Positions 47,322 to 64,000 of a stretch of 64,000 nucleotides of DNA are shown piece after piece. The DNA is from Eubacteriales bacterium (GTDB taxonomy: Bacteria; Bacillota; Clostridia; Oscillospirales; JAAYXM01). The notes under the pieces were generated by a model. That model had not been told where the DNA came from. It searched no databases and saw nothing but the letters and a program-made list of their open reading frames with translations. How positions within the stretch are numbered: the first letter of the stretch is position 1; each line of letters begins with the position of its first letter. Location: assembly GCA_045586595.1 (NCBI GenBank), contig JAZNAQ010000011.1, positions 4,713-68,712 of the forward strand, written 5' to 3'. The position numbers and the translations under genes are program-made.

Positions 47322-47529
47322 AGATATTTTTCTCCTTTCGAAAGGTCATTCTTCAATAGTTTAAGTATAACATCTTACGGAGTTTAATTCAAGTTTCCAT
47401 TATGGTTGACACTCCTCAGTTATAATTGTATTATATATCAAGAGAAGCTTTCTCGGATATGTTTAACAACAGAGGTCTATTGCGGTAACACAATATCCGC
47501 ACAGTACAAAAAAGAGAGTGTGACAGTTA

Positions 47530-47844: not shown

Positions 47845-47857
47845 TATCACAGATAAA

Positions 47858-47900
47858 TAATAAAGGTGCCGAAACATAATGTTTCGGCACCTTTATTATT
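47858..47900. terminator. Bidirectional terminator between the TIGR04076 gene and the cotJC remnant
   Basis: An approximately 20-bp stem, AATAATAAAGGTGCCGAAAC pairing with GTTTCGGCACCTTTATTATT. Confidence 0.8.
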
Positions 47901-47907
47901 GTATTGT

Positions 47908-48372: not shown

Positions 48373-48572
48373 CTTGTGAAATCTCAAGTACCCAAGTCGA
48401 AAAATGTAGTAATTCCAAGACTTTCGGGCTACTCGGCAAAGTGCCGTTACTTGAAATTCAAGGAATTCGGACAAATTCAAAACGCACATGCAATGTGAAA
48501 ATTAAAGTAAATATTTAACGGACAAGCACTACCGAAAGGTGGTGCTTTTTCTGTTTCAGGAGGTACGGAAGA

Positions 48573-49007
48573 ATGAAATTAAATTATTTTTATAAATGCG
48601 AGGCAGACCAATTTACCTTTTACCGCCTGCCGAAGATTTTAGTGGTAAATGAGATGTTTTCACACATTTCCTACGGTGCGAAGATTCTCTACGGACTACT
48701 TCTTGACAGAATGGGTCTTTCCCTTTCAAATCACTGGCACGATGAATTCGGCAGAGCATATATTATCTACAGCATTGTCGAGATTATGGAAGATATGAAC
48801 TGCTCCAAAGCAACGGCGATTAAGATGATGACCGAGCTTGAAGATGCAGGACTGCTTGAGAAAAAGCGACGAGGTCTGGGACTTGCGAATATTATTTATC
48901 TTAAAAAGTTCATTGCGATCGAAAATCAAGAAGTTCAAACTTTAGACTTCAGAAGTCAAGAAAGAAACATTCCAAGAAGTACAGAATTTGAACTTCAAGA
49001 AGTTTAA
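48573..49007 (+). CDS. RepA_N-type replication initiator protein A-like
   Basis: 144 aa. FYRLPKILV......ISYGAKILYGLLLDRMGLSLSN.W.DE.GR.YIIYSI.EIME is typical of Firmicute RepA_N domains. GGAGGT SD. Confidence 0.75.
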   Translation: MKLNYFYKCEADQFTFYRLPKILVVNEMFSHISYGAKILYGLLLDRMGLSLSNHWHDEFGRAYIIYSIVEIMEDMNCSKATAIKMMTELEDAGLLEKKRRGLGLANIIYLKKFIAIENQEVQTLDFRSQERNIPRSTEFELQEV

Positions 49008-49105
49008 GTTTTAAACCCTAATAATACTAAACCAAATAATAATTACTGTAAAAATACTTATTCAATCATATCGTATCATGATGTGATGAGAAACGAGGTG
49101 CAAAA

Positions 49106-50020
49106 ATGAACATAGGGCTAAAAAGCTATGAAGATTTATTTAAGGACGAGAAAGGCAGAAAGACCGAAGAAATTGTGCCTGTTGATATTAAGGACTTAAA
49201 ACCATATACCGAGCAACCGTTTAAGGTTCTTCTTGATAACAGCATGGACGAGCTTTGTGCAAGTATTGAGCAATACGGAATACTCTCTCCCGTAATTGTG
49301 AGATCGCATAAGGACGGTGGATATGAAATCCTGTCGGGACACCGCCGAGTAAAGGCGTGTGAACTTTTGGGCATCGAGGAAGTCCCCGTTGTAGTAAAAG
49401 AACTCGATGACGACACAGCGGCAATACTGCTTGTTGACAGCAACCTGCAAAGAGAAAACATCCTACCCAGCGAAAAAGCCTTTGCTTATAAATTAAAGCT
49501 TGAATCCGTTAAAAGAAAAGCAGGTAGACCGCCAAAAGAAAATTTGGGACAAATTGTCCCAGATTTATCTGGCAAACGTTCGACAGAAATTGTGGGTGAG
49601 CAATATGGAGACAGTTACAAACAAGTCCAACGCTATATACGTTTAACAAATCTTATTGATCCGCTTTTGAATCTTGTGGACAAAAACGAAATGGCAATGA
49701 GTGCAGGGGTTGAGCTTTCATATCTTGGATCAAAGCTTCAGTCGGAGATTTATAAAATCGTCGAGCGTGAACAAACGCCGCCGTCAATCGCCCAAGCAGC
49801 AAAGCTCCGCAAAACCGCCGAGGAAGGAAACCTTGATGAATCTACTCTTGAATTTATCTTGACCGCACAAAAAGAACCGGGGATTAAACTTGTCATCTAT
49901 GAGGACAAGCTCCGTCGCTACTTCCCCAAGAGCTACACCAAGGAGCAAATCGAAGATACTGTTATGAAACTAATTCAGAAGTGGCATAAGAATCGGGGAA
50001 AAGAAAATTCCCGAGGATAA
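49106..50020 (+). CDS. ParB/Sulfiredoxin-domain (ParB-like nuclease/partition) protein
   Basis: 304 aa with the ParB N-terminal motif (QPFKV...GILSPVIVR...GYEILSGHRRVKACELLG). Confidence 0.85.
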   Translation: MNIGLKSYEDLFKDEKGRKTEEIVPVDIKDLKPYTEQPFKVLLDNSMDELCASIEQYGILSPVIVRSHKDGGYEILSGHRRVKACELLGIEEVPVVVKELDDDTAAILLVDSNLQRENILPSEKAFAYKLKLESVKRKAGRPPKENLGQIVPDLSGKRSTEIVGEQYGDSYKQVQRYIRLTNLIDPLLNLVDKNEMAMSAGVELSYLGSKLQSEIYKIVEREQTPPSIAQAAKLRKTAEEGNLDESTLEFILTAQKEPGIKLVIYEDKLRRYFPKSYTKEQIEDTVMKLIQKWHKNRGKENSRG

Positions 50021-50073
50021 AATTTTGAAGAATAGTGGGTATCCAAACTAAAATTAAGACGAAAGGAGCGATG

Positions 50074-50439
50074 AAAATGATTACATACTCAAAGTCAGGC
50101 AACATCTTGCTGCCGAACCTTAAAATCCCGAACTCACCCAAAGAACCCATTGGCATCTACGGCAGAATGAGGCGTGATTATCTCAAAAAGAACCGCCGCA
50201 GCATTTACTCTGCCATGATGCTTAAAGGAACGCTTTTAGACCATCTTGCGGAACTTGATAAAACCTGCCGTGAGGAAGCTAAGCTTCGCATAAAGGCAGA
50301 GGCAGAAAAACAAGGCATTACGGAAGAACTAAAGGCGCAGGATATGCTCAAATGGACAGGACTTATGAACAACATCCAAAACGCGGTTCGGGAGCAAATA
50401 ACGCACGAGTTTGTGTATGCCGAGGAGGGACTGATGTGA
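50074..50439 (+). CDS. tnpV: TnpV-family transposon-associated protein
   Basis: IGIYGRMRRDYLKKNRR...LLDHLAELDKTC...EELKAQDMLKWTGLMNNI matches the TnpV pattern of Tn4451-like elements as I recall it. The start is ATG at 50074 or 50080, after AAAGGAG. Confidence 0.75.
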   Translation, partial: KMITYSKSGNILLPNLKIPNSPKEPIGIYGRMRRDYLKKNRRSIYSAMMLKGTLLDHLAELDKTCREEAKLRIKAEAEKQGITEELKAQDMLKWTGLMNNIQNAVREQITHEFVYAEEGLM

Positions 50440-50996
50440 AAAAACTCTTTGCGTTGATTATTGCATTAACCTTTTCAACAACGACATATGCCGCCGGCAT
50501 TCCTCACGAATCGCTACCATCTAACGCCACCTTTGAGTGTATGAAATATACCGAAACACTCATTGGCGATATTTTAGATCGAGTACAAAACGGGCTCGGG
50601 TATTCCGATGCACTTGTGGAATCACGACGGAGATTCTTTCCGCTTGTAATAAGCGGTCGGTCAAGAGGATACAGTTTTTCTAACTTGAGCGAAGTTGCAA
50701 GCAACGCAATATTTCAATATCGGGATATGCATCTGCGACCGGAGTTTTATGCGACAAACGAGCCTAAAGTGCGACAGATAATATCGGATGTGCTGGATGC
50801 GGTAAGGTGCGGTAAAATAAGTTATGCCGAGGCTGAAAAGAGAGCCTATGAAAAGATATACCAATCGGTCGATGCAAGCTTTAACTACGACCGAGAGTTT
50901 GCAAAGGATACCTGCTATCGCAATATACCCTCGGTGGATAACAGTTTGTTCACCATCGCGCGAAGGTTAATATTAGAGGTAACGCCTGTCAGATGA
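50436..50996 (+). CDS. Hypothetical secreted protein
   Basis: The GTG at 50436 overlaps the tnpV stop (ATGTGA) and follows a GAGGAGGG SD. Signal peptide KKLFALIIALTFSTTTYAAG. Confidence 0.5.
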   Translation: MKKLFALIIALTFSTTTYAAGIPHESLPSNATFECMKYTETLIGDILDRVQNGLGYSDALVESRRRFFPLVISGRSRGYSFSNLSEVASNAIFQYRDMHLRPEFYATNEPKVRQIISDVLDAVRCGKISYAEAEKRAYEKIYQSVDASFNYDREFAKDTCYRNIPSVDNSLFTIARRLILEVTPVR

Positions 50997-51016
50997 CGGG
51001 CGTTATTGTTATATGT

Positions 51017-51121
51017 GGCAAGCATAGCATTTGTACAGACAAATGCATTAGCAAGCACGGCATTTTGACAACCAAAAAGCCAATAATGAAAATTTGTTTT
51101 AGCAAGCACGGAAATTTGACA
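51017..51121 (+). repeat. Three iteron-like direct repeats (consensus about TTAGCAAGCACGGnAnTTTGACA)
   Basis: The copies are GGCAAGCATAGCATTTGTACA (51017-51037), TTAGCAAGCACGGCATTTTGACA (51048-51070) and TTAGCAAGCACGGAAATTTGACA (51099-51121). Confidence 0.7.
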
Positions 51122-51136
51122 TCAAATTTTCCATTC

Positions 51137-51154
51137 TTAGGGGCAAGCCCCTAA
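51137..51154. repeat. Perfect 8-bp inverted repeat (TTAGGGGC-AA-GCCCCTAA); candidate oriT or operator hairpin
   Basis: Read directly from the sequence. Lies 30 nt upstream of the first MobC-like gene. Confidence 0.6.
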
Positions 51155-51185
51155 TACCCCAATTAAATTTTAAGGAGACGATATT

Positions 51186-51518
51186 ATGAGAACAAGAAAA
51201 CATCAATTCACATTACGCTTAAACGAGAAAGAAGACAAGGCTCTGATTCGCCTTGTCAAAAAGGCAGGGACAAACCGAAGCGCAGTGATTCGACAGCTAA
51301 TTATGGACTGCAGAGTCAAGCAAAGGCCCGAGGAAATCTTTGAAGAAATGACAGAGCGAATAAAGGTACATCGTTTGGAGATGGATGAGATTGCAAAGGA
51401 GTGCACTCTCACTCGAACGATAACGGAAGAACAACTCAACCGCATAGGCGAGCTGCAACTGAAAGTTAAAGCCATTATCGAAGAATACGAGGATTGCTTT
51501 GTGGACGACGAGCAATAG
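51186..51518 (+). CDS. MobC-like ribbon-helix-helix relaxosome accessory protein
   Basis: 110 aa. RKHQFTLRLNEKEDKALIRLVKKAGTNRSAVIRQLI is an RHH/MobC signature. AAGGAG SD. Confidence 0.7.
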   Translation: MRTRKHQFTLRLNEKEDKALIRLVKKAGTNRSAVIRQLIMDCRVKQRPEEIFEEMTERIKVHRLEMDEIAKECTLTRTITEEQLNRIGELQLKVKAIIEEYEDCFVDDEQ

Positions 51519-51529
51519 CAGGTGATTCT

Positions 51530-51832
51530 ATGAGTAACAGAAAATTTATAGTCAGATTAAACGACGAGGAACGGGCAAAACTCAATAGCCTCACCGAGAA
51601 AACATTACTCACTCAAAAAGGAATCATCCGCAATATCCTTTTGGGTTATAAATTGCCCACCAAAGTGCCGGATTCCTATACCAACTTTATGCGCCATATC
51701 AACAGCCTGTCTTATTACATATTCAAACTCAAAGTCCAAGCTGATAAAAACGACTCACGCCAACTTGCCAAAATCGAAGAACTCGACCGCAATATAGAAG
51801 AAATAATGAAACTGGCACTATCGTTTATCTAA
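51530..51832 (+). CDS. Second MobC-like ribbon-helix-helix protein
   Basis: RKFIVRLNDEERAKLNSLTEKTLLTQKGIIRNIL parallels the preceding gene. ATG at 51530 follows AGGTGA. Confidence 0.6.
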   Translation: MSNRKFIVRLNDEERAKLNSLTEKTLLTQKGIIRNILLGYKLPTKVPDSYTNFMRHINSLSYYIFKLKVQADKNDSRQLAKIEELDRNIEEIMKLALSFI

Positions 51833-51838
51833 CACACA

Positions 51839-51876
51839 GGGAGAGGAGTTATCCAAACGCCTCTCCCTACTTTTTT
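51839..51876 (+). terminator. Terminator after the MobC-like genes
   Basis: GGGAGAGG (51839-51846) pairs with CCTCTCCC (51860-51867), followed by TAC-TTTTTT. Confidence 0.7.
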
Positions 51877-51920
51877 GTATTTATATATACGATAAAAATG
51901 TCGATACACCGACAATTTTA

Positions 51921-51950
51921 TTGACTTTTCGACATCAGAAGTGGTATAAT
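51921..51950 (+). promoter_or_regulatory. Sigma-A-type promoter for the XRE gene and probably the downstream operon
   Basis: TTGACT (51921-51926), an 18-nt spacer, then TG-extended TATAAT (51945-51950). The inverted repeat ATGTCGA (51898-51904) / TCGACAT (51929-51935) brackets the -35. Confidence 0.6.
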
Positions 51951-52000: not shown

Positions 52001-52204
52001 ATGGCAGTTACTTATAATAAACTCTGGCATTTGCTGATCGACAGAGGTATGAAAAAGAAAGACCTGCAAGAGGCTGCAGGTCTCACAAACCACACAATGC
52101 TCAAACTCCGCAAAGACCAGGATATCACCACCGAAACCATCGGCAAGATATGCAAAGCTCTCGGTTGCACAATGGACGATATCATGGAGTTTTATGAAAG
52201 ATGA
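52001..52204 (+). CDS. XRE-family helix-turn-helix transcriptional regulator
   Basis: 67 aa. LIDRGMKKKDLQEAAGLTNHTMLKLRKDQDITTETIGKICKALGCTMDDIMEF is a Cro/CI-type HTH. AAAGGA SD. Confidence 0.88.
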   Translation: MAVTYNKLWHLLIDRGMKKKDLQEAAGLTNHTMLKLRKDQDITTETIGKICKALGCTMDDIMEFYER

Positions 52205-52261
52205 ATCACTGTACGGTTTATTGTGCAGTTATTATGAGATAATCATGCTGGAGATGTGCAC

Positions 52262-55200
52262 ATGGAAATAATTGATAATATAAATAAAAAGCTTAAAGAT
52301 GATTTGAAAATTGAAATAAAAGATGGAAGTAAGTTGGCGATTGCCGCTGCTTGCTTTTCTATCTATGCCTTTCAAGAGTTAAAAGAAGAACTCAAGAGCA
52401 TCGATGAATTACGTTTCATATTCACCTCCCCTACTTTCACAACGGAAAAAGCTAAAAAAGAAAAACGCGAATTTTATATACCTCGCCTTAACAGAGAACG
52501 TAGCCTTTATGGAACGGAATTTGAAGTAAAGCTTCGCAATGAGCTTACACAGAAAGCTATAGCCAAAGAGTGTGCTGAGTGGATTCGCGATAAGGTTACA
52601 TTCAAATCAAACATCACTAACGAAAATATGATGGGATTCATCAATGTTAATGATAAAAACTATATGCCGGTCACTGGCTTTACTACCGTTGACTTAGGTT
52701 GCGAACGAGGAAACAATGCATACAACTTTGTGCAGAAAACCGAATCTCCTTTTTCGACCACCTACATAGAGTTGTTTGAAAGCCTTTGGAATGATAAAAC
52801 GAAGCTTCAGGAAGTCACTGACGAAGTTATCGAAAACATCACGACGGCATATAACGAAAATTCTCCTGATTTCATTTACTTCGTTACTCTCTATAACATC
52901 TTCAATGAATTTCTTGAGGATATATCCGAAGACGTACTCCCCAACGAAGGAACAGGTTTCAAAGACAGCAAAATCTGGAATATGCTTTATAACTTCCAGA
53001 AGGATGCAGTTCTTGCAATTATAAATAAGCTTGAGAAATTCAACGGGTGCATTCTTGCTGATTCCGTTGGTCTCGGTAAGACATTTACAGCCCTTGCAGT
53101 AATCAAATATTACGAGTCCAGAAACAAGAGCGTTCTCGTACTTTGTCCGAAGAAACTCGCTAATAACTGGAATACATATAGGGACAACTATGTCAATAAC
53201 CCGATAGCAGAAGACCGCTTAAACTATAAAGTTCTCTACCATACTGACCTCGGTCGTGATCACGGCGAATCTAACGGAACGGATTTATCTCGTCTTCGTT
53301 GGGATACATACGATCTTGTTGTAATAGACGAATCGCACAATTTCCGTAATGGTGGAAAGCTTTCAGGTGAAGATAACGAAAAAGAAAACCGTTACCTGCG
53401 CCTTCTTAATCAAGTTATCAAAAAAGGCGTTAAGACGAAAGTTCTTATGCTTTCGGCAACACCTGTAAACAACCGTTTTAACGACCTTAAAAACCAGATA
53501 GCTCTTGCTTACGAAGGTAATTCTGATCTTATTGATGATAAATTGAATACATCTCGCTCCATAAATGAAATTTTCAGAAATGCACAGCGTGCATTCAATA
53601 TGTGGAGCGAGTGGAAACCTCAGGAGCGAACAACTGAGAAACTTCTCAAGATGCTTGATTTTGACTTCTTTGAGGTTCTCGATTCTGTTACGATTGCTCG
53701 TTCGAGAAAGCATATCAAGAAATATTATGACACCACAGATATCGGCACTTTCCCGACTCGTCTAACTCCGATTTCAAAACGGCCGCAGTTGACTGACCTT
53801 TCGGATGCAATTACTTACAACGAAATCTTCGAACATCTGATGATGCTTACATTGTCAATTTATACTCCGACGCATTATATTCTTTCAAGCAAGATTAAAA
53901 AATACGAAGAATTATACGATGATAAAAAAGTAAGCGTCGGCCTTACCCAGGCGAACCGTGAGCAAGGTATTCGACGTCTTACTGCAATCAATTTGATGAA
54001 GCGAATGGAAAGCTCTGTCTATTCGTTTAATCTCACAATGACAAGAATCAAGGACTTCATCAGCAAGACTATTGATAAAATAGATGCTTATGACCGCCAT
54101 GCTTCTGAGGTTCTTGAGTTAACAGACATTACCGATATTGAAGAATTCGACAGCGAAGACCAGAATGATGATCTTTTCTCGTTCGGTAAAAAAGTCAAAA
54201 TCGACCTTGCGGATATGGACTATGTCTCCTGGCGTGAATCACTTGTTAAGGATAAAGAAGTTCTCGAGCTTCTCACACTAATGGTTAACGATATCACTGC
54301 CGAGCATGATAGCAAGCTCCAGGAACTGTTATATATCCTCGCAAATAAGGTTAACAACCCCATCAACGAAGACAATAAGAAAATCATTATCTTCACCGCA
54401 TTCGCGGATACTGCACGCTATCTCTACGATAACGTAAGCGACTACATGAAGAAAAACTTCGGCTTGAATACAGCTATGATAACCGGCACGGTAGATGGTA
54501 AATCAACCGTAGCGGGACTTCGTAATGACCTTAATACAGTTCTTACCTGTTTCTCGCCAAAGTCGAAGGAGAGAGATTTGTTTGACTCTATTCCTAAGGT
54601 GGATATCGATATCCTCATTGCAACTGACTGTATTTCCGAAGGTCAGAACTTGCAGGACTGCGATTATCTCATCAACTATGATATCCACTGGAACCCCGTG
54701 CGCATCATTCAGCGTTTCGGGCGAATCGACCGTATTGGAAGCACGAACAGCGTTATCCAGCTTGTAAACTTCTGGCCGAATATTACGCTCGATGAGTACA
54801 TCGACCTCAAGGCGAAAGTCGAAACACGAATGAAGATTGTCGATATGACGGCTACGGGCGACGACAACATCATCAGTGAAGAGGAAAAGACTGACCTCGA
54901 ATACCGTAAAGCACAACTCAAGAAATTGCAGGAAGAAGTCGTCGATATTGAAGAAATGTCAACCGGAATTTCGATTATGGATTTAGGACTAAACGAATTC
55001 CGCCTGGACCTTCTTGATTATATAAAGACGCATCCGCACATCGAAAAAACGCCGTTCGGCTTGCACACAGTCACCGCCGCAACGGACGATATGCCGGCAG
55101 GTGTTATCTACGTGCTTAAAAATCGTACAAACAGCGTGAATATAGACAGTCAGAACAGACTTCACCCGTTCTACATGGTCTATATCAGCAATGACGGAGA

Positions 55201-55873
55201 GGTTGTATGTGACCATCTCTCGCCTAAAGCGTTGCTTGATAAGGTTCGCTTCTTGTGCAAGGGTAAAACAGAACCAATTCCGGAATTATACAAAGAATTT
55301 AACAAAGAGACCAACGACGGAAAGAACATGACGGGGCTGTCAAAACTTCTTGGTGATGCCATTGCATCTATTATCGAAGTTAAGGAAGAAAGCGATATCA
55401 ACAGCTTCCTTTCTGGTGGTCAGGTAAGCTTCTTATCGAATGAAACAAAGGGACTGGACGACTTCGAGCTCATTTGCTTTATCGTTGTAAGAGATACAGA
55501 GTTGAAGCCTGCTACAGCGCGAGATTTCCGTGTAGTTGTTGCCGGAAGTAGAAACTTTAACGATTATAACCGCTTGTCAGATGCCCTTGATAAATACCTT
55601 GCCGATAAGGACAATGTAACAATAGTCAGCGGCACTGCACGCGGCGCCGACAGAATGGGAGAGCGCTATGCCGCAGAGCATGGACTCAAAATTGAGCAAT
55701 TCCCTGCAGAATGGGGTAAGTATCATAAAGGCGCAGGACCGATAAGGAATATGCAGATGGTACAAAGCGCCGATGCAGTAGTTGCATTCTGGGATAATGA
55801 ATCAACCGGAACAAAGCACATCATTGACTGCGCAAGACAAGAAAATATTCCCTGTAAGGTAATCAGTATTTAA
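52262..55873 (+). CDS. SNF2-family helicase with an unassigned ~250-aa N-terminal region and a C-terminal SLOG (DUF2493/YspA-like) domain
   Basis: SNF2 motifs LADSVGLGKTFTA, DLVVIDESHNFRN, LMLSATPVNN and GQNLQDCDYLINYDIHWNPVRIIQRFGRIDRIGS. The last 118 aa (nt 55517-55870) read FRVVVAGSRNF...VSGTARGADRMGERYA...GAGPIRNMQMV..ADAVVAFWDNESTGTKHII, a DUF2493-type SLOG pattern. ATG at 52262 lies 9 nt after GGAG. Confidence 0.85.
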   Translation: MEIIDNINKKLKDDLKIEIKDGSKLAIAAACFSIYAFQELKEELKSIDELRFIFTSPTFTTEKAKKEKREFYIPRLNRERSLYGTEFEVKLRNELTQKAIAKECAEWIRDKVTFKSNITNENMMGFINVNDKNYMPVTGFTTVDLGCERGNNAYNFVQKTESPFSTTYIELFESLWNDKTKLQEVTDEVIENITTAYNENSPDFIYFVTLYNIFNEFLEDISEDVLPNEGTGFKDSKIWNMLYNFQKDAVLAIINKLEKFNGCILADSVGLGKTFTALAVIKYYESRNKSVLVLCPKKLANNWNTYRDNYVNNPIAEDRLNYKVLYHTDLGRDHGESNGTDLSRLRWDTYDLVVIDESHNFRNGGKLSGEDNEKENRYLRLLNQVIKKGVKTKVLMLSATPVNNRFNDLKNQIALAYEGNSDLIDDKLNTSRSINEIFRNAQRAFNMWSEWKPQERTTEKLLKMLDFDFFEVLDSVTIARSRKHIKKYYDTTDIGTFPTRLTPISKRPQLTDLSDAITYNEIFEHLMMLTLSIYTPTHYILSSKIKKYEELYDDKKVSVGLTQANREQGIRRLTAINLMKRMESSVYSFNLTMTRIKDFISKTIDKIDAYDRHASEVLELTDITDIEEFDSEDQNDDLFSFGKKVKIDLADMDYVSWRESLVKDKEVLELLTLMVNDITAEHDSKLQELLYILANKVNNPINEDNKKIIIFTAFADTARYLYDNVSDYMKKNFGLNTAMITGTVDGKSTVAGLRNDLNTVLTCFSPKSKERDLFDSIPKVDIDILIATDCISEGQNLQDCDYLINYDIHWNPVRIIQRFGRIDRIGSTNSVIQLVNFWPNITLDEYIDLKAKVETRMKIVDMTATGDDNIISEEEKTDLEYRKAQLKKLQEEVVDIEEMSTGISIMDLGLNEFRLDLLDYIKTHPHIEKTPFGLHTVTAATDDMPAGVIYVLKNRTNSVNIDSQNRLHPFYMVYISNDGEVVCDHLSPKALLDKVRFLCKGKTEPIPELYKEFNKETNDGKNMTGLSKLLGDAIASIIEVKEESDINSFLSGGQVSFLSNETKGLDDFELICFIVVRDTELKPATARDFRVVVAGSRNFNDYNRLSDALDKYLADKDNVTIVSGTARGADRMGERYAAEHGLKIEQFPAEWGKYHKGAGPIRNMQMVQSADAVVAFWDNESTGTKHIIDCARQENIPCKVISI

Positions 55874-55891
55874 GAATGAGGAGGTGATATT

Positions 55892-56497
55892 TTGCTAAGT
55901 TTACCGAAATCCACAGAACTTAAAAAGCAACTTCCTAAAAATGCGATATATGCAAAGTTTAATATGAACAACGCACAAAAGGAAAGGTTCGATGCAGATA
56001 TTTCAAGGATAAATATCATAGCAGAAATATCACCATCCACTACTAACATCGCAAAGGGCGAAACTGTATCGTCTATTTACATCGTTCAGGTTATGCTCAA
56101 GCGCAAAGAATTTGATGAAAGAACCATAATTCAGCTTTCAAAGCTAATTGACCAGAATATGATTCTCGCTTTAGAGTTTGAGAATATGACAAAACTTGCC
56201 ATATATCACACCAAACTACTTCAAAGTGAATGGTGCGACAAGGAAGATGCAAAGATAGAACTCAAAGGTCTCAACCTCGACAAAGTATGGGAGAGCATCA
56301 TAAAACAAATCGGTGATATCGAAGTTTCGGAAGGTCTATCGCTTGATGAACAGATTTCACAAAACGAAGAAAGAGCAAAACTCGAAAAAGAAATAGCACG
56401 GCTTGAAAAACAAGCTCGTGCAGAAAAGCAGCCAAAGAAGAAATTCGAACTGGTGCAAAAGATAAATGAGTTGCGAAATATACAACGTGAGGGATAG
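55892..56497 (+). CDS. DUF4391 domain protein
   Basis: 201 aa. The N-terminus LPKSTELKKQLPKNAIYAKF..., followed by ISPSTTNIAKGETV, matches my recollection of DUF4391 proteins encoded next to SNF2 helicases and methyltransferases. TTG start after GAGGAGGTGA. Confidence 0.65.
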   Translation: MLSLPKSTELKKQLPKNAIYAKFNMNNAQKERFDADISRINIIAEISPSTTNIAKGETVSSIYIVQVMLKRKEFDERTIIQLSKLIDQNMILALEFENMTKLAIYHTKLLQSEWCDKEDAKIELKGLNLDKVWESIIKQIGDIEVSEGLSLDEQISQNEERAKLEKEIARLEKQARAEKQPKKKFELVQKINELRNIQREG

Positions 56498-56502
56498 TTT
56501 AA

Positions 56503-57357
56503 ATGGCAAGAAAAAATATTTTTCAGTTAGTAGAAGAAAATTACGATATACAAGATGAAATAAGGAAAATAAATAAACTTTTCGCTGAAGAGGATTATTT
56601 TGAGAACAATGACAATTATTATACTTTACAAAGATTAATGCGATACTACTTATTTCCGAATTGGAAATATCGCGGAACATGTCTTACCATAGAAGAATTT
56701 TTCGAACGTGTTGATGCAACTATACCAAATATGAATCGCATAAGAGAAGCCCAAATCATTAATAACTTGGAAGTTATGGAAAACTTCGTTAAATTATATT
56801 TTGATAACAGCGAAAAGTTATACGAACAAAATAAAATTCAATATTATCGAGATTTTAAATCGGTATTCTGTGAATTGATCAATACTCTCGAAAAAAGAAT
56901 GGGGCTTACCACTCGCGAATACAAAGATAAAGTCATTCTGTATCCTAAAAATGCACCGCTCGAAAAAGTTATCGATTTATGTGATGATGAGGATGTTCAG
57001 TGGGAACTTATACGATATGTAAGAGAAGATTTATCGCTAACTGAAAAAAGAAAATCTCTTGCCTTTCTTGCCACTAATCTCTACATTGAGGAAGATCGAA
57101 CCGAGAAAAATGAACACATTAAAGAGCTTGTAAAAAAAGCAGGCAACATTCTCAACAACCTACATATCCGTCATAATAATAAGACAGGAAAATGGGAAAA
57201 CAAGGCACTTGACGCACTTGATAAAAAAGATGCTATTTCTTTATGCAACATGGTATACAACGAAATGCTCACAATTGTCTTATTGAGAGAACACAAGGAA
57301 TATGAGAAGGTATACAAAGAGTTTAATAAAAAACAAAAGGAAGCACGAGCTAAATAG
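56503..57357 (+). CDS. Hypothetical protein (284 aa, predicted all-alpha, no recognisable family)
   Basis: Long ORF on the operon strand, 5 nt after the DUF4391 stop. GAGGGA SD. Rich in K/E/N/Y. Confidence 0.6.
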   Translation: MARKNIFQLVEENYDIQDEIRKINKLFAEEDYFENNDNYYTLQRLMRYYLFPNWKYRGTCLTIEEFFERVDATIPNMNRIREAQIINNLEVMENFVKLYFDNSEKLYEQNKIQYYRDFKSVFCELINTLEKRMGLTTREYKDKVILYPKNAPLEKVIDLCDDEDVQWELIRYVREDLSLTEKRKSLAFLATNLYIEEDRTEKNEHIKELVKKAGNILNNLHIRHNNKTGKWENKALDALDKKDAISLCNMVYNEMLTIVLLREHKEYEKVYKEFNKKQKEARAK

Positions 57358-57368
57358 TAGGAGACCAC

Positions 57369-58574
57369 ATGAAAACTCTTGATTTTTTTGACCCTATACC
57401 GGAATCACTGCGAAAAAGCTTGGAATTACAAAATAAAATTCAAGATAGTATGCAACCTATCCTTGAACAAGAAGAAAAAATAAAAAAGATAAGTGAAATT
57501 ACTGAAGGTGTTAAACTCGATTTGCCAAAAGCCATGTTTTCATCGCCGACTGTTGATGCTATTGCGCAGATAGAAGAAATGAACCCATATAAAGTTATAG
57601 ATGAATTAACTTCAGATGCGACCATAGCCGAAGTGGGATTAGGCAACTACGCAACGCCTATAGATATTATCGGGAATTCTGTAATGAAATTCGCAAATTA
57701 CTTTTCTGATTACCAGATAAGTTCCGGAATGTATGATGCAATTAGTACCTTTGAGAAAAGTGCTTCAATCTTCGGAAACGCAATACAAACATTTATTGAA
57801 AACGCGAGTTCCGCATTAACATCAGTAATTGAATCGCCCATGATGCAATGGTTGCAATCGTTTGACTTCACTCCTATATGGTCTTTTTTTGATAACTTTG
57901 ATCTTGAATGTGATTTTTCAGATAGATACAAAGAATTAAATGGAGCTTATCTTACCGCAATGTATGAATGTAAGTGGTTTCCGTATGCCGGATGGTCTAT
58001 TGATATACGAATGTTTTCAACCATCAGTGAAATTATATCGGCAAGTCGCGGTGCAAGTAAACGCAGAGAAAAAAGAATTGATGATGTAATTTTTGCTTAT
58101 TACACTAAAAGTGAAATAAAAAACATTAAAAGAACTTGGAAAAACTCAGACTTAGATCCGCATATAAAGAAAATATTAGGACAGGCCATAGAAGCTCATT
58201 TGCGAGGAGAATATGTGTTGACAACAACCTGTTTAGCAACTATGTGGGAAGGTTTGATACATAAAAAACTAAATGTAAAAGAAAGACTCGGCTCAAAGAA
58301 AACCAGAGAGGCATTCAAAGACCTTATAGGTGATAATGATTTCGATCCAATCTTTGCGGAGTTTTATGAAAATTTTATTGTATGTGATTGTAATTCCCCA
58401 GACGAAGTCATTGAAGGAATCCCTAATCGAAACGGTATTTCACACAGTAAGTATAAGAAGTATCCTAACAAAAAGGCTTCTCTCAATGCAATTTTGCTCA
58501 CAGATTTTATAATCGGACTTAAGCCAAAAGAAATGGTGGTAAAGAACAAAGAAGAAACGGAGATCAATATATGA
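57369..58574 (+). CDS. Hypothetical protein (401 aa) with a C-terminal HEPN-like domain (Rx4H motif)
   Basis: TAGGAG SD. The C-terminal ~170 aa is helical, with ILGQAIEAHLRGEYVLTTTCLATMWEGLI and later IPNRNGISHS (R-N-G-I-S-H at nt 58428-58445). This is the spacing and context typical of HEPN RNase domains. Confidence 0.6.
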   Translation: MKTLDFFDPIPESLRKSLELQNKIQDSMQPILEQEEKIKKISEITEGVKLDLPKAMFSSPTVDAIAQIEEMNPYKVIDELTSDATIAEVGLGNYATPIDIIGNSVMKFANYFSDYQISSGMYDAISTFEKSASIFGNAIQTFIENASSALTSVIESPMMQWLQSFDFTPIWSFFDNFDLECDFSDRYKELNGAYLTAMYECKWFPYAGWSIDIRMFSTISEIISASRGASKRREKRIDDVIFAYYTKSEIKNIKRTWKNSDLDPHIKKILGQAIEAHLRGEYVLTTTCLATMWEGLIHKKLNVKERLGSKKTREAFKDLIGDNDFDPIFAEFYENFIVCDCNSPDEVIEGIPNRNGISHSKYKKYPNKKASLNAILLTDFIIGLKPKEMVVKNKEETEINI

Positions 58575-59086
58575 AAGAGTGGAGTGCATTTTTTACTAAT
58601 CTAATTGACAAATTTGATTTCAAGGAACTTATGATTTGTCTTTTTGTTGTTTTATCTTTGATGTTAGTTCCTCGGATTAATGTTTTAAGTTTTTTAATGC
58701 CGCTTGATAGCGCGAAAAAATGGATTGTCTTTGTTTTTGTTTTAATTGCTGTATACCTTGTTTTGACTCTAATTATCCTAATATGGAAAAGTGCAAAAAA
58801 ATATAATGATCACAAACCAAAGCAACTTGCAAAAATGATGAAAAAATACGGCAAATATCTCGAGGTTTTTTATTCAAAAAACCTCGGTGAGTATTCTAAA
58901 TGTGCTTTCGATTTGTATACTGTTCCAGATGCAGTTGTCGGCAAATTGCAAGAAAATAAGATAATCTACATTGCTAATTATACTCATTCAGAGTTTGCTT
59001 TAACAGATCAAGCGAGAAAAAAACTAACGCAAAGAAGAAAGATGCTTAAGTTAATTGATAAGATTATTGTCAAGAAAAGTAAGTAG
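58571..59086 (+). CDS. Hypothetical 2-TM membrane protein (171 aa)
   Basis: The start overlaps the previous stop (ATGA), implying translational coupling. Two hydrophobic helices (LMICLFVVLSLMLVP and WIVFVFVLIAVYLVLTLIILIW) precede a basic soluble tail. Confidence 0.6.
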   Translation: MKEWSAFFTNLIDKFDFKELMICLFVVLSLMLVPRINVLSFLMPLDSAKKWIVFVFVLIAVYLVLTLIILIWKSAKKYNDHKPKQLAKMMKKYGKYLEVFYSKNLGEYSKCAFDLYTVPDAVVGKLQENKIIYIANYTHSEFALTDQARKKLTQRRKMLKLIDKIIVKKSK

Positions 59087-59098
59087 GAGGAATAAATA

Positions 59099-61105
59099 AT
59101 GGATAAACTTAAGATGCATACGCCGAACAAGGCGGATGAGAATTATAAAAAGCTTGCGGAGTTGTTTCCGAATGCGGTGACGGAGACTATTGACCCTGTT
59201 ACCGATGAGGTCGTGCGCGCTATTGATAAAGATGTTCTGATGCAGGAAATCTCTACTACTGTTGTTGAGGGCAAGGATGAGCGCTATCAGTTTACCTGGC
59301 CGGATAAGAAAAAGTCTGTTCTCCTCGCTAATGCACCTATCAATAAAACTCTCCGCCCCTGCAGAGAAGAAAGTGTAAACTTCGATACAACAGAAAACCT
59401 CTATATTGAAGGCGACAACCTTGAAGTGTTAAAGCTCTTGCAGGAAACATATCTCGGCAAGATTAAAATGATTTACATAGACCCTCCGTATAATACAGGT
59501 AATGATTTCGTGTACGAGGATGACTTTGCACAGAGTACAGATAAATACATGGCAAATAGTGGTCAGTTTGATGAAGAAGGAAATCGTCTCGTGCATAACA
59601 CAGAGAGTAATGGACGTTTTCATACGGATTGGTTAAATATGATGTATCCTCGTCTTAGAATTGCAAAAGATTTATTGACGGAGGATGGGGTTATATTTAT
59701 TTCTATTGACGATAACGAAATAGAAAACACACTGAAAATTTGCGATGATATATTCGGAGAATATAATCGCATCGCAGTACTCCTTAGAGAAGCAATTAAA
59801 GGAGGTTCGCTATCTAAAAACATCAGGAATGTACATGATTACGTTGTATGCTATGCGAAGTTTTTAGATAAAATTAATTTTGGTGGCGTAGAAACAGATG
59901 GAATTACACTTGATTTAGAAGACGAACACGGGAAATATGCTAAAGGCAGAGAGTTGAACAAATGGGGAGCTGGTTCTAGACGAGAAGATTCCCCTACAAT
60001 GTTTTACCCGATACCTGGACCTAATGGAGAAGATGTATATCCTATTAGAAATGACGGAAGCGAAGGCAGGTGGAGATTGGGAAAACAAAAGATGTTTGAA
60101 TTACTAAATGCCGACAATGCAATATTTGAACAAAGGGACGATGGTACATATATAGTCTATGAAAAACTAAGAGACGATTCACCTAAAACAAAACAGTTTA
60201 CTACATGGTTTTCTCAAGAATATATTAATGCAAAAGGAACTGAAGAATTAAAGGCGTTATTCGAAAAAGAAAGAGCAATTTTTGATTTTTCAAAACCAAC
60301 AAAGTTAATCAATGATTTATTAGTTATGAATAACGATAATGAGTGCGTGGTGCTTGACTTCTTCTCAGGCTCAGCTACAACCGCGCATGCAGTTATGCAG
60401 TTAAATGCAGAAGATGGCGGACATCGCAAGTTTATTATGGTGCAGTTGCCGGAAGAAACAGACGAAAAATCCGAAGCATATAAAGCCGGATATAAGAACA
60501 TCTGCGAAATAGGTAAAGAACGCATTCGCAGAGCCGGAAAGAAGATTCAAGATTTTTTGAGAGAAGCCGGATTGCCGTATAGAAAAGTTGTTACAGAAGG
60601 TGTGCCGTACGAAGTAAATGGAAATACGCATAAGCGAGCTGAATGGGATTCCCCGGAGTTTCCGGAAGTTGAAAATGCTTGCATTGCAAATTCGTTAGAT
60701 ATAGGTTTCCGTGTTCTCAAGTGTGATTCTTCCAACATGAAAGATGTTTATTATAATCCGCAGGATGTTGAGCTTTCTTTGTTTGGAAGCTCGGTAGATA
60801 ATATTAAAGAAGACAGAACTCCTGAAGATTTGTTGTTCCAGGTTATGCTTGATTTGGGTGTACTTCTTTCAAGCAAGATTGAAGAAACAACTATCAGCGG
60901 AAAGAAAGTATTTAATATTGCAGATAACTTCCTTATCGCTTGCTTTGATGAGAATGTAACAGAAGATGTTATAACAGAAATTGCAAAGCAAAAGCCATAT
61001 TACTTCGTAATGCGCGATAGCTCCATGGCAGATGACAACGTCGCCACTAACTTCGAGCAGATTTTTGCAACCTACAGCCCCGACACAGTAAGGAAGGTGC
61101 TGTAA
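59099..61105 (+). CDS. mod: Type III restriction-modification Mod subunit (beta-class N6-adenine/N4-cytosine DNA methyltransferase)
   Basis: 668 aa. Catalytic motif IV IYIDPPYNTGNDF comes before SAM motif I VLDFFSGSATTAHA, which is the beta-class order. The central region is variable (TRD-like). TAGGAGG SD. Confidence 0.88.
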   Translation: MDKLKMHTPNKADENYKKLAELFPNAVTETIDPVTDEVVRAIDKDVLMQEISTTVVEGKDERYQFTWPDKKKSVLLANAPINKTLRPCREESVNFDTTENLYIEGDNLEVLKLLQETYLGKIKMIYIDPPYNTGNDFVYEDDFAQSTDKYMANSGQFDEEGNRLVHNTESNGRFHTDWLNMMYPRLRIAKDLLTEDGVIFISIDDNEIENTLKICDDIFGEYNRIAVLLREAIKGGSLSKNIRNVHDYVVCYAKFLDKINFGGVETDGITLDLEDEHGKYAKGRELNKWGAGSRREDSPTMFYPIPGPNGEDVYPIRNDGSEGRWRLGKQKMFELLNADNAIFEQRDDGTYIVYEKLRDDSPKTKQFTTWFSQEYINAKGTEELKALFEKERAIFDFSKPTKLINDLLVMNNDNECVVLDFFSGSATTAHAVMQLNAEDGGHRKFIMVQLPEETDEKSEAYKAGYKNICEIGKERIRRAGKKIQDFLREAGLPYRKVVTEGVPYEVNGNTHKRAEWDSPEFPEVENACIANSLDIGFRVLKCDSSNMKDVYYNPQDVELSLFGSSVDNIKEDRTPEDLLFQVMLDLGVLLSSKIEETTISGKKVFNIADNFLIACFDENVTEDVITEIAKQKPYYFVMRDSSMADDNVATNFEQIFATYSPDTVRKVL

Positions 61106-62082
61106 TGAGTAACTATGGAACATGTCCTTACTGCCATTCGAATATAATATATTCGCAATTTGGAACCAATCAAGTCCATGAATTGATTGAGTGTCCAAGT
61201 TGTGGAAGATTTGAAATCAGGAAATTACCTTTTCAGACAGGAAAAGATATTAAAGATGAAACTGCTTCATATTTGTATTATCACTCTGAGGATAGGTTCT
61301 TAAATTTTCTTGGAGATAAGGATTTATATGAAAGTGATTATAGTCATTCAGAAGATATTTCGTATGTGTCCAGAGAAGAGATACTTGCTTTTCAACCAAA
61401 AAGTTTTGCCGAAAGAATCGACATGATATTATTAGAATTTGCCAAAAAATCTGATTTTATTGGTGAAGAAATAGTACTTTCAAAAGAGCAAACATATAGT
61501 TTGCTATTCATAAAAAGACATGATGCAGAAGGAAATCTTTTGAAAAAAGAGATAGTTTCCTCGCAATTGCGTGAAATAACTGACTATTTAGAAGAAAATA
61601 AATATACAGAAGGTTACTATCAAGATGGTGCCGTGTTTGTTTTGAAGCCTGAAGGGTGGAAAAGAGTGGACGAGTTGCAGAAAAATGCAACTGCAAACTC
61701 AAAAACTGCTTTTGTAGCAATGTCTTTTGATAAGGAAATGAAACCTATTGAAGATGCTATTAGAGCAGCAATCACAAAGTGTAAATTCGTACCGATGATT
61801 ATTAAGGACAAGGAATATAATAGGCAGATTGTTCCAGAGATACTTCATGAAATAAGACAATCAAGATTTGTTGTTGCAGAATTTACTAATCACAATAATG
61901 GTGCTTATTATGAGGCTGGATATGCTTTTGCTTTAGGAAAAGAAGTGATTCATCTTTGTAACGATGATAGTTTTGAACAAGATGCACATTTTGACGTAAA
62001 GCAAGTTAACACAATTCGCTGGAAAACTACAGAAGATTTAGAGCAAAAACTTATTAAAAGAATAAACGCAACCATATCATGA
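61105..62082 (+). CDS. Zn-ribbon protein with a C-terminal nucleoside 2-deoxyribosyltransferase-like / TIR-like Rossmannoid domain
   Basis: The ATG overlaps the mod stop (TAATG). N-terminus carries CPYC...CPSC. The C-terminus reads KTAFVAMSF...SRFVVAEFTNHNNGAYYEAGYAFALGKEVIHLC...HFDVKQVNTIRW, resembling the D/N-x-G-T/A-x-(F/Y)-E-x-G-x-A-x-A-x-G-K-x-V block of NDT-fold proteins. Confidence 0.6.
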   Translation: MSNYGTCPYCHSNIIYSQFGTNQVHELIECPSCGRFEIRKLPFQTGKDIKDETASYLYYHSEDRFLNFLGDKDLYESDYSHSEDISYVSREEILAFQPKSFAERIDMILLEFAKKSDFIGEEIVLSKEQTYSLLFIKRHDAEGNLLKKEIVSSQLREITDYLEENKYTEGYYQDGAVFVLKPEGWKRVDELQKNATANSKTAFVAMSFDKEMKPIEDAIRAAITKCKFVPMIIKDKEYNRQIVPEILHEIRQSRFVVAEFTNHNNGAYYEAGYAFALGKEVIHLCNDDSFEQDAHFDVKQVNTIRWKTTEDLEQKLIKRINATIS

Positions 62083-62099
62083 TTCGGTTAGGTGATAAC

Positions 62100-64000
62100 A
62101 TGAAATTTAACTTTAAAATACAACAATATCAAAGCGATGCTGTTGAGGCGGTCTGCAGTGTATTTGCAGGGCAAGGCTTCAATAGCGGTATAGGATATCG
62201 CAGGGACTTGGGTAATGTTAAGCCGAACAACAACGAGCAAATCAAGCTTTCTTCTGCTGATGAGTATGGCGAGGAGCTTGACCTTGCAAATGATTCGGGA
62301 TTTAAGAATGATGAGGTTTATCTTTCTAATGATACTCTTCTTCAGAACATCCACGAATTGCAGAATGCCAATAACATTAAGCTTTCCCCTTCCCTTGTCA
62401 AGGATTTAGGCAGATGCTCTCTTGATGTTGAAATGGAAACAGGTACAGGAAAGACGTATGTTTACATAAAGACTATGTTTGAGCTTAACAAGAGATATGG
62501 CTGGAGTAAGTTTATCGTTGTTGTTCCGTCTATTGCTATCCGTGAGGGCGTTGCCAAAACTTTCGAGATTACGGCTGACCACTTCATGGAGCATTACGGA
62601 AAGAAAGCGAGATTCTTTGTCTATGACAGCTCTAACCTTAATGCGATTGATAACTTCTCCGCAAGCTCGGGCATCAATGTTATGATAATCAACACCCAGG
62701 CTTTTGCATCTTCCCTTAAAGAGGATGGCAAGAGCAAGGAAGCGAGAATTATCTATTCAAAGCGCGATGAATTCCAGTCGCGCAGACCGATTGATGTTAT
62801 CAAGGCGAACAGACCCATTATCATCCTCGACGAGCCTCAGAAGATGGGCGGCGATGTAACACAGAAGGCGCTCAAGAACTTTAATCCGTTATTTACGCTC
62901 AATTATTCAGCTACACACAAGACACAACATAATCTTGTGTATGTTCTTGATGCGCTTGATGCTTACAACAAGCGTCTTGTAAAGAAAATTGAGGTTAAGG
63001 GCTTTGAAGTTAAGAACTTCCGTGGAACGGACAAGTATTTGTTCTTAGAAAGTATAGTTCTTTCTCCAAAGAAGCCACCTATGGCTAAAATCGAGCTTGA
63101 AATTGGTTACAACAAATCCATCAACCGCGAAACTCGCATCCTCGGTGTTGGTGATAATCTATTTTATGTTTCGCAGGAGATGGAGCAATACAGAGGTTAT
63201 TCTATTTCCGAGATTGACCCGATTCGCGGATGCGTAACCTTCACTAACGGTGAGGTTATAAGTACAGGCGATGTTGTTGGCGATGTTTCGGAAAAGGATA
63301 TGCGCAGAATTCAGATTCGAGAAACTATTCTTTCGCACTTTGAGAAAGAGGAAAAACTCTTCAATCGCGGAATTAAAACGCTTTCGCTTTTCTTCATAGA
63401 CGAGGTTGCGAAGTACCGTCAGTATGATGAAAATGGCGATGAAGTGCTTGGGGAATATGGTCGCATATTTGAAGAAGAGTATCTGAGCATCCTTAACGAG
63501 AATATAACGATATACGGAACAGAGTACCAGGAATACCTCAAAAAGACCGGTTCGGATATCCCGAAAACGCATAAGGGATATTTCAGTATTGATAAGAAAA
63601 CCGGAAGAAGTGTTGATAGTGCCTTAAAACGTGGAAGTGAGTTCTCCGATGATATTTCTGCGTATGACCTTATCCTGAAGAATAAGGAGAGACTTCTTTC
63701 TTTTGATGAGCCGACGAGGTTTATCTTCTCTCACTCTGCGCTTCGCGAAGGCTGGGACAACCCGAACGTATTCCAGATATGCACATTAAGGCACTCCGAC
63801 AGTAACACTGCAAAGCGGCAAGAGGTTGGTCGTGGGCTTCGTCTTTGCGTCAATCAGCAAGGTAACCGTATGGATGCGGAAACCTGCGGCGAATTGGTAC
63901 ATGAGATCAATGTGCTCACAGTTATTGCAAACGAGAGTTATAAAACTTTCGTTTCGGATTTGCAGTCTGATATCAAAGCAGTTCTTTATGACAGACCGCT
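62100..64000 (+). CDS. res: Type III restriction enzyme Res subunit (SF2 helicase-nuclease); N-terminal ~633 codons, continues beyond the window
   Basis: My own translation from the ATG at 62100 (after AGGTGA) gives MKFNFKIQQYQSDAVEAV...LDVEMETGTGKTYVY (Walker A)...IIILDEPQKMGG (DEPQ box)...NYSATH...EGWDNPNVFQI... The frame is open to 64000, so it is absent from the ORF track. Confidence 0.88.
   Translation, partial: MKFNFKIQQYQSDAVEAVCSVFAGQGFNSGIGYRRDLGNVKPNNNEQIKLSSADEYGEELDLANDSGFKNDEVYLSNDTLLQNIHELQNANNIKLSPSLVKDLGRCSLDVEMETGTGKTYVYIKTMFELNKRYGWSKFIVVVPSIAIREGVAKTFEITADHFMEHYGKKARFFVYDSSNLNAIDNFSASSGINVMIINTQAFASSLKEDGKSKEARIIYSKRDEFQSRRPIDVIKANRPIIILDEPQKMGGDVTQKALKNFNPLFTLNYSATHKTQHNLVYVLDALDAYNKRLVKKIEVKGFEVKNFRGTDKYLFLESIVLSPKKPPMAKIELEIGYNKSINRETRILGVGDNLFYVSQEMEQYRGYSISEIDPIRGCVTFTNGEVISTGDVVGDVSEKDMRRIQIRETILSHFEKEEKLFNRGIKTLSLFFIDEVAKYRQYDENGDEVLGEYGRIFEEEYLSILNENITIYGTEYQEYLKKTGSDIPKTHKGYFSIDKKTGRSVDSALKRGSEFSDDISAYDLILKNKERLLSFDEPTRFIFSHSALREGWDNPNVFQICTLRHSDSNTAKRQEVGRGLRLCVNQQGNRMDAETCGELVHEINVLTVIANESYKTFVSDLQSDIKAVLYDRP

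Follow-up and report, generated by a model that had tools for sequence, protein, structure and literature searches.

Is a tightly packed run of genes built around a type III restriction-modification (R-M) pair one multi-part anti-phage machine, or a restriction core into which separate defence genes have been inserted? This question is raised by positions 52001 to 64000 of the window, a 64,000-nucleotide stretch of Eubacteriales bacterium DNA (GenBank assembly GCA_045586595.1, contig JAZNAQ010000011.1, positions 4,713 to 68,712, forward strand). Open reading frame (ORF) listing and translation of the window gave a block of nine tightly packed plus-strand genes. They encode an XRE-type helix-turn-helix (HTH) protein, an SNF2 ATPase with a SLOG tail, a DUF4391 protein, the type III methyltransferase Mod and restriction subunit Res, and four further proteins of 284, 401, 171 and 325 aa, the last with a Zn ribbon and an NDT-like domain. 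A preliminary description of the sequence had taken all nine genes for one composite system. Comparison with related loci favors another answer, to which we assign a probability of about 0.72: an SNF2/DUF4391-augmented type III R-M core that carries embedded, probably autonomous back-up defence genes. In this answer, HTH, SNF2, DUF4391, Mod and Res make up a five-gene core, an ancient variant of type III R-M that moves horizontally.

The comparison covered 68 non-redundant loci (numbered L001-L086), drawn from the contexts of 401-aa protein homologues, a DUF4391-anchored scan of species genomes, a metagenome scan and tblastn searches against plasmids. SNF2, DUF4391, Mod and Res occurred in that order in every complete locus. 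Compared with those of the window, proteins from loci in Clostridia and Erysipelotrichia showed identities of 73-82% (SNF2), 53-64% (DUF4391), 51-63% (Mod) and 71-83% (Res). An insert-free core was found in L021 and on plasmids of Escherichia coli, Mycolicibacterium vanbaalenii, Methylotuvimicrobium and Photobacterium; one E. coli copy lies on plasmid pRHB17-C02_4 (CP057716.1, 3234-12562). The SNF2 proteins of the first three of these plasmid hosts, which were aligned, were 54-57% identical to that of the window, and a RelB-type gene replaced the HTH gene on the Photobacterium plasmid. Ten of 5426 complete E. coli genomes carried the core.

When loci were compared in pairs, the identities of SNF2, DUF4391, Res and the conserved Mod regions co-varied (Spearman 0.67-0.86, Mantel p<=0.001), and those of the Mod target-recognition region (residues ~205-400) were uncorrelated with any of them, so that the four core genes are inherited as a unit and specificity is swapped separately. 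A canonical type III R-M system requires only mod and res; such systems hemimethylate an asymmetric site, and their ATP-dependent cleavage depends on two unmodified sites in inverse orientation. This two-gene definition does not describe the present core, as SNF2 and DUF4391 accompany Mod and Res in all DUF4391-anchored loci. The impression that an SNF2/DUF4391/Mod/Res skeleton recurs was therefore well founded, with SNF2 and DUF4391 as conserved partners of Mod and Res, and no functional study of it was found in the searchable literature.

The remaining four genes were not conserved neighbors of Mod and Res. Genes may be inserted at three junctions, which we call slot A (between SNF2 and DUF4391), slot B (between DUF4391 and Mod; 56498-59098 in the window) and slot C (between Mod and Res; 61106-62099). 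In the window, slot B holds the 284-aa gene (56503-57357), the 401-aa gene (57369-58574) and the 171-aa gene (58571-59086, its start overlapping the preceding stop by 4 nt), and slot C holds the 325-aa gene (61105-62082), all on the plus strand. Slot B was filled with one to four genes in 44 of 58 loci and empty in 14, and slot C was filled in 33 of 44 and empty in 11; only four loci had slot A filled. The 124 cargo genes of the whole set fell into 73 blastp families, 52 of them singletons, and most of the family representatives that were scanned had no family assignment. The cargo combination of the window was absent from all other loci in the set, and homologues of its 171-aa and Zn-ribbon/NDT genes were absent from their slots.

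The edges of the slots are sharp. DNA comparison with six loci placed the homology breakpoints at the 3' end of DUF4391 (~56463-56478), the Shine-Dalgarno (SD) sequence of Mod (59086-59092), the Mod stop codon (61105-61108) and the Res ATG (62100). In one pair of loci (L002 and L022), the sequences were 89% identical through the Mod N-terminus and the slot-C genes differed. Base composition follows the same division: G+C content at third codon positions (GC3) was 0.45-0.53 in XRE, SNF2, the ends of Mod and Res (0.31 in the Mod target-recognition region), and 0.23-0.30 in the four cargo genes.

Slots of sister loci contained known defence systems, including AbiLi/AbiLii and SIR2+HerA+nuclease, together with PDC-S06 (PrrC-like) and PDC-S20 (KAP NTPase). 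Other contents were TIR proteins, AAA_13, DUF4145, DUF6680, RhuM, Fic+Bro-N, AbiJ_NTD3 and Abi_C. On a Sulfitobacter plasmid (L041:9280-13607), a 551-aa 'RNA-binding domain' protein was located between Mod and Res; hence slot-C cargo is not confined to Firmicutes. Thus, the genes found between core members are variable, include known defence systems and have relatives outside the host system, which is the pattern expected of embedded cargo.

These data bear directly on the idea that all nine proteins form one integrated machine, with effectors that are obligate and co-evolved with the restriction core. In its favor, a single promoter precedes the tightly coupled genes, the cargo is in principle co-transcribed, and cargo families are faithful to their slots. 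However, the combination is unique in the set, slots are often empty or hold unrelated genes, the cargo families are seen alone or with other partners, their composition differs from that of the core, and autonomous known systems (AbiL, SIR2-HerA) share the same slots. The comparative sequence data thus largely refute a nine-part machine, and we consider it highly improbable. The 'three-gene cassette' of the preliminary description also did not survive as a conserved unit: the 284-aa family is the only slot-B gene in L050, and 401-aa homologues occupy slot B of other loci with different neighbors. The neighbors of the nearest 401-aa homologue (73% identical) are WapI, a membrane protein of 451 aa and another protein of 223 aa.

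Slot fidelity deserves separate consideration. None of the 21 multi-member families occurred in more than one junction type, whereas shuffling the labels 100000 times never gave this outcome; shared descent makes the statistic look stronger than it is. We propose that the sharp breakpoints and slot fidelity arise because cassettes exchange through the conserved ends of the flanking genes. Alternatively, cargo could be under strict guard, physically kept inactive by the flanking R-M subunits, like PrrC by EcoprrI, and released when a phage anti-restriction factor or depletion of S-adenosylmethionine disables Mod and Res; the function of the cargo would then depend on the core. The exact, family-specific slot positions speak for this model. 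In addition, PrrC-like ABC ATPases (PDC-S06, AAA_13) were present in slot B of L012, and only there, a Zn-ribbon/NDT protein also lies between Mod and Res in L035, and the literature offers precedents (bioRxiv 10.1101/2024.01.29.577857, PMC3710099). Yet cassette exchange via flanking homology would give slot fidelity too, and members of the same families were found both in loci that have no R-M neighbor (L005, L033) and next to systems of other kinds (L030, L037). Strict guarding therefore appears unlikely to us.

As for the core proteins, window proteins were profiled against Pfam, PADLOC and NCBIfam, and homology of the Mod/Res pair to EcoP15I was confirmed. Mod (59099-61105, plus strand) matched PADLOC MTase_III (2.7e-216), Pfam N6_N4_Mtase (2e-26) and EcoP15I Mod (PDB 4zcf_A, 1.2e-62), and its translation contains the motifs IDPPYNTG (DPPY) and FFSGSATT (FSGSATT). 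In the conservation profile, residues 1-200 and 440-668 were conserved and the target-recognition region was hypervariable. By sequence criteria, Mod qualifies as a type III N6-adenine-type (beta-class) methyltransferase. Res begins at 62100 on the plus strand and runs beyond 64000, so that the window end leaves its first 633 aa. This part is a superfamily 2 (SF2) ATPase with TGTGKT and DEPQ motifs, matching ResIII (5.6e-15), PADLOC REase_III (6e-211) and NCBIfam PRK15483 (3e-96). The full-length Res orthologue of L021 matched EcoP15I Res (PDB 4zcf_C, 4e-76), and the endonuclease domain RE_endonuc (PF19778), which lies past the point where the window cuts Res at base 64000, was present in orthologues 71-83% identical to it.

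Several irregular forms of the core were noticed. In a Holdemania massiliensis isolate (L001:11114-12969), an A-run that has lost 1 nt (A6 to A5) splits Mod, and the metagenomic twin of this locus (L002:11114-12970) has an intact Mod; the split is likely a sequencing error, with phase variation as the alternative. Mod of L004 is likewise split (109+503 aa). Insertion sequence (IS) elements (IS256, ISApl1) break the core in some plasmids, namely the Sulfitobacter plasmid L041 and the E. coli hit H19. The Mycolicibacterium (L025:14683-17274) and Methylotuvimicrobium (L026:14914-17022) plasmids each have, immediately after Res, a large gene for an 'AAA family ATPase', which may be a further associated component or part of a neighboring system.

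The SNF2 gene occupies 52256-55873 on the plus strand (1205 aa), with ATG 52262 favored as the start by orthologue alignment. The protein has SNF2-rel_dom and Helicase_C domains with the motor motifs GLGKT and DESH, and matches the PADLOC model 'HKD+Snf2' (C3a139) end to end (1e-127); the origin of this model was sought and could not be traced. Its N-terminal domain is PLD-like and carries TFKSN at the position expected for HxK in all eight aligned orthologues, including proteobacterial and actinobacterial ones. Since the HxK histidine is missing in every one of the eight, an active HKD nuclease was rejected and, by this motif reading, we treat the domain as catalytically inactive. The C-terminal tail begins around residue 1085 and contains a YAcAr SLOG domain (PF10686, residues 1092-1156, nucleotides 55529-55723, plus strand) that exceeds the gathering score (70.5 bits against a cut-off of 28.2, 1e-19). 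Homologues of the tail were present in 12 non-redundant loci, and PF10686 was also matched in L028/L029. By its sequence distribution, the YAcAr SLOG tail is an optional add-on of SNF2.

DUF4391 (55892-56497, plus strand; Pfam 1.3e-32) is predicted in the AlphaFold2 model to consist of an alpha/beta N-terminal domain and a long charged C-terminal helical hairpin. Its family had 5811 matches in a protein search, and a literature search on DUF4391 returned only irrelevant papers. We considered it as a specificity or reader subunit tracking the Mod target-recognition region and rejected this role because identities of the two were uncorrelated (rho -0.09).

The XRE gene (52001-52204, plus strand, 67 aa) matched HTH_26 (Pfam, 4e-20), and an HTH gene stands before SNF2 in many Firmicute loci as well as in the Mycolicibacterium and Methylotuvimicrobium loci. 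The best promoter of the region, TTGACT-18-TGgTATAAT (51921-51950, plus strand), is located just upstream; it is of the sigma-70 type with an extended -10 TG and 11/12 matches. The total number of promoter-like matches in the region was not above shuffled background, and the case for this one is made by its position and quality. It adjoins an operator-like inverted repeat, TGTCGATACACCGACA (51899-51914), and an extra TCGACA half-site is found at 51929 within the promoter spacer. By likeness to the C-boxes of R-M controller proteins, this repeat is a putative binding site of the XRE controller, and XRE is probably a C-protein-like controller of the operon that acts through it.

Farther upstream, direct reading of the sequence revealed a plus-strand hairpin (GGAGAGG...CCTCTCC) followed by a T-run (~51840-51876), which the terminator scan had skipped because its loop exceeds 8 nt; it likely ends the upstream gene, setting the operon's own promoter apart. 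Within the nine-gene block, the plus-strand terminator scan detected nothing better than a weak 5-pair match. From SNF2 onward the genes are spaced by +18, +5, +11, -4, +12, -1 and +17 nt, and a purine-rich SD precedes each of the nine starts. The gene order, spacings and SDs given in the preliminary description were reproduced exactly, as were its single good promoter with an operator-like repeat before XRE and its lack of a convincing internal terminator. All nine genes are predicted from these signals to be co-transcribed behind one promoter, and the block looks like a single operon.

How does this core relate to known systems? With EcoP15I/EcoP1I type III R-M it shares homologous Mod and Res, Mod placed before Res, a variable central Mod region and an SF2 ATPase in Res. 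It differs in that the pair stands behind an HTH gene, DUF4391 and an SNF2 ATPase of 1080-1215 aa, and in that a foreign gene usually parts Mod from Res. Its SNF2 is comparable to the SNF2 helicases of BREX type 3 (BrxHII), DISARM (DrmD) and Hma/BR (HmaA), from all of which it differs in having a PLD-like domain without the catalytic His and in using a type III Res as the nuclease. The window SNF2 motor scored best against DrmD (NCBIfam NF038317), but its 156.8 bits are below the cut-off of 610, and, unlike class 1 DISARM, the operon lacks DrmA/B/C; no protein matched DrmB or DrmC, and the only DrmA match was a weak, partial one by the SNF2 motor (73.9 bits, PADLOC).

Likewise, none of the nine proteins matched PglZ or BrxC of BREX, although SNF2 matched the BrxH profile far below its cut-off. 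Unlike Hma/BR, the operon has no DUF499/AAA+ gene, and the HmaA profile covered only the helicase C-lobe (90.6 bits); HmaB was not among the PADLOC matches listed for Mod, all of which were MTase_III or MTase_II. With defining genes missing and scores far under cut-offs, the earlier statement that the locus fits neither BREX nor DISARM was upheld, and the same applies to Hma/BR. Type-2 BR helicases have been reported to contain an N-terminal HKD/PLD domain and to be paired with a small standalone protein, DUF3780 (PMC12839542). In MANTIS/Gao_RL, loading of the methyltransferase requires an extra ATPase and a small co-regulator, and a helicase-nuclease restricts inverted unmodified sites (bioRxiv 10.64898/2026.09.23.753747). 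The likeness of this four-gene logic to the window core serves as a working hypothesis. MANTIS was rejected as the identity of the core because the two share no homology, MtsA belonging to the AAA+ ATPases and MtsD being a PLD nuclease that resembles SauUSI.

The cargo has closer parallels. Payne et al. (bioRxiv 10.1101/2024.01.29.577857) described defence genes embedded in Hma, BREX, DISARM and type I R-M. As in those systems and in PrrC-EcoprrI, variable defence cargo that is also found elsewhere is nested here in a methylation-based system, and ABC-ATPase/PrrC-like, TIR and HEPN proteins are typical cargo. Type III-like R-M with SNF2/DUF4391 was outside that study, and the window operon differs in having two slot-faithful sites. 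Similarly, Abi_C/Abi2, AbiJ, DUF4145, RhuM, Fic/DOC and PrrC/RloC-like genes have been reported within R-M operons (Anantharaman et al. 2013, PMC3710099). The same cargo types occurred in sister loci, whereas the four cargo proteins of the window belong to none of these families, an R-x4-H motif being the only hint of HEPN. Unlike a PrrC-type anticodon nuclease, the window cargo includes no ABC ATPase. The host system with its two slot-specific hot spots was not found in the searchable literature.

What might the four cargo genes of the window encode? The 284-, 401- and 171-aa proteins had no family match in Pfam, NCBIfam, PADLOC or PHROGs, except for a sub-threshold match of the 171-aa protein to SieB (Pfam, E 0.0097). 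The 284-aa family comprises 269 unannotated clusters at 50% identity with invariant E90, Y172, K182, N218, R223 and H224, and profile searches with it against PDB and Pfam were empty. The gene has a GC3 of 0.30, compared with 0.45-0.49 in the core, and is a candidate embedded defence gene by these sequence features.

The 401-aa protein has a variable, poorly predicted N-terminal half and a confidently predicted all-alpha C-terminal domain (residues 183-390) containing an invariant N-R-x4-H motif (N353, R354, H359), and is a possible HEPN-type RNase. Relatives occurred outside any type III locus, either beside an ATPase_2/DUF234 gene or in an island with a PLD-helicase and type I R-M. In L031/L032 (9763-16180), such a homologue, together with NUDIX, Fic and PLD-helicase genes, adjoins a type I R-M system (HsdM, HsdS, HsdR) that has DUF2971 and SEFIR/TIR genes between its subunits, another case of embedding from the same gut communities. 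Toward its N-terminus the 171-aa protein has two hydrophobic segments (~14-45 and 50-76), and its C-terminal tail is basic. In three contexts (window 58571-59086, L027:5250-6605 and L030:9095-9409), a 401-aa family gene is followed by a protein with hydrophobic segments that is not homologous among them, which hints at a recurrent pairing of an RNase-like protein with a membrane protein of unconserved sequence.

In the 325-aa protein, a Lar-like Zn ribbon with four cysteines is followed by a middle domain and then, at the C-terminus, by a domain resembling nucleoside 2-deoxyribosyltransferase (NDT). It scored 28.8 bits against Nuc_deoxyrib_tr (PF05014), equal to the gathering cut-off, and had a weak match to a PADLOC TIR effector. 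PF05014 was found on most of 120 Zn-ribbon/NDT homologues among the matches listed. The family had 612 matches with four invariant cysteines, and 36 sequences shared invariant E270, G272, A274 and K279 in the motif NGAYYEAGYA..GK. The gathering score together with the conserved catalytic-type Glu places the 325-aa protein in PF05014. Its homologues stand alone, adjoin Thoeris and a type II R-M system, separate Mod from Res in L035, and are represented in a PHROG family. With a GC3 of 0.23, this gene is a candidate single-gene nucleotide-targeting effector, as judged from its domains and contexts. Overall, the domain assignments made beforehand held for XRE, SNF2-SLOG, DUF4391, Mod, Res and Zn-ribbon/NDT, and that of HEPN proved suggestive only.

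Could such cargo instead consist of toxin-type addiction or competition modules, or selfish hitch-hikers that stabilize the element or operon and have no anti-phage role? Classic toxins include Fic/DOC, RhuM and proteins of the HEPN type, the element is mobile, and Payne et al. suggested a selfish gain from embedding (bioRxiv 10.1101/2024.01.29.577857). Nevertheless, no antitoxin-sized partners are evident for the window cargo genes, validated anti-phage systems share the slots, and cargo relatives have Thoeris, type I/II R-M and PLD-helicases as their neighbors in defence islands. A purely selfish or addictive nature of the cargo is thus quite improbable.

The reading that we prefer, an augmented type III core with embedded back-up genes, leads to the following model. 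Mod would mark the DNA of the host at an asymmetric site, its variable target-recognition region determining which one, and Res together with Mod would cut unmarked DNA. SNF2 and DUF4391 may form an ATP-driven module that acts on DNA or on the Mod-Res complex by loading, clearing or activating it; this role is inferred by analogy with DrmD, BrxHII, HmaA and MANTIS MtsA/B. XRE, via the promoter inverted repeat, could time expression after transfer. Cassettes would be swapped at slots B and C, and rarely A, by homologous recombination in the conserved ends of the flanking genes. The window cargo would then represent independent effectors of the abortive-infection or back-up type that are co-transcribed with R-M and are not subunits of one machine. 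They would fire once restriction fails or is inhibited, as in the logic of PrrC-EcoprrI. Among them may be an RNase-like and a membrane protein as well as a nucleotide-targeting enzyme, whether autonomous or R-M-guarded.

Several observations weigh against this interpretation. L035 (7161-13185) has Mod, a Zn-ribbon/NDT gene and Res, the latter 70-72% identical to the clade, and lacks SNF2 and DUF4391; a Fic gene and housekeeping genes are located upstream. Mod and Res of the window's clade can therefore persist without the SNF2 pair, which suggests that this pair may be dispensable for basic R-M, or may itself be an accessory module. The roles proposed for SNF2 and DUF4391 are purely inferential, and fold search with the DUF4391 model (mean predicted local distance difference test, pLDDT, 71) gave no significant PDB match. 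Slot fidelity and translational coupling could mean that cargo is functionally tied to the neighboring genes, and co-transcription of the block is a prediction from gene spacing and signals. HEPN stays a hypothesis for the 401-aa protein because its best HEPN structural matches were not significant: Foldseek returned nothing at E<0.5, with HEPN entries 1wol, 1o3u and 2q00 at TMt 0.44-0.51, and hhalign comparison with DUF4145 and Abi_C profiles was negative, as was the Pfam search. Finally, the locus sample is skewed to gut Firmicutes, since the scans relied on highly conserved peptides of DUF4391.

The genes to the left of the operon are relevant to its mobility. To the right of the chromosomal gene tex (45186-47321, minus strand), which is the left neighbor of the element, a scan of the upstream genes detected RepA_N (48573-49007), ParB-like (49106-50020) and RHH/NikA-like (51186-51518) genes, and the region 47400-51900 also holds several unannotated small ORFs. 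Because these RepA_N, ParB-like and RHH/NikA genes (48.5-51.8 kb) follow tex, the proposal that the block sits on a mobile element is plausible. No integrase was detected within the window, and a megablast search with the block found nothing useful among plasmids or phages.

A broader possibility is offered tentatively, as one that we would not expect to hold in full. HTH-SNF2-DUF4391-Mod-Res might be a distinct, cross-phylum form of methylation-based immunity that needs the SNF2 motor and DUF4391 for restriction or methylation. Its two junctions might be an integrase-free, slot-specific cassette platform, and the 284-, 401- and 171-aa and Zn-ribbon/NDT genes might add four anti-phage effectors to those known, a part of them set off when the surrounding R-M fails.

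Embedding of defence genes in methylation-based systems is already known. DUF4391, with its 5811 proteins, marks a common type III-like R-M with an SNF2 motor, and thanks to the natural plasmid copies in E. coli, the contribution of a remodeller-type ATPase to restriction should be easy to test. The two slots are a rich and well-delimited source of candidate defence genes, as well as a clean case for studying how defence cassettes exchange and whether they back up disabled R-M. The SNF2/DUF4391 core and the four candidate embedded defence genes thus remain worthwhile leads.

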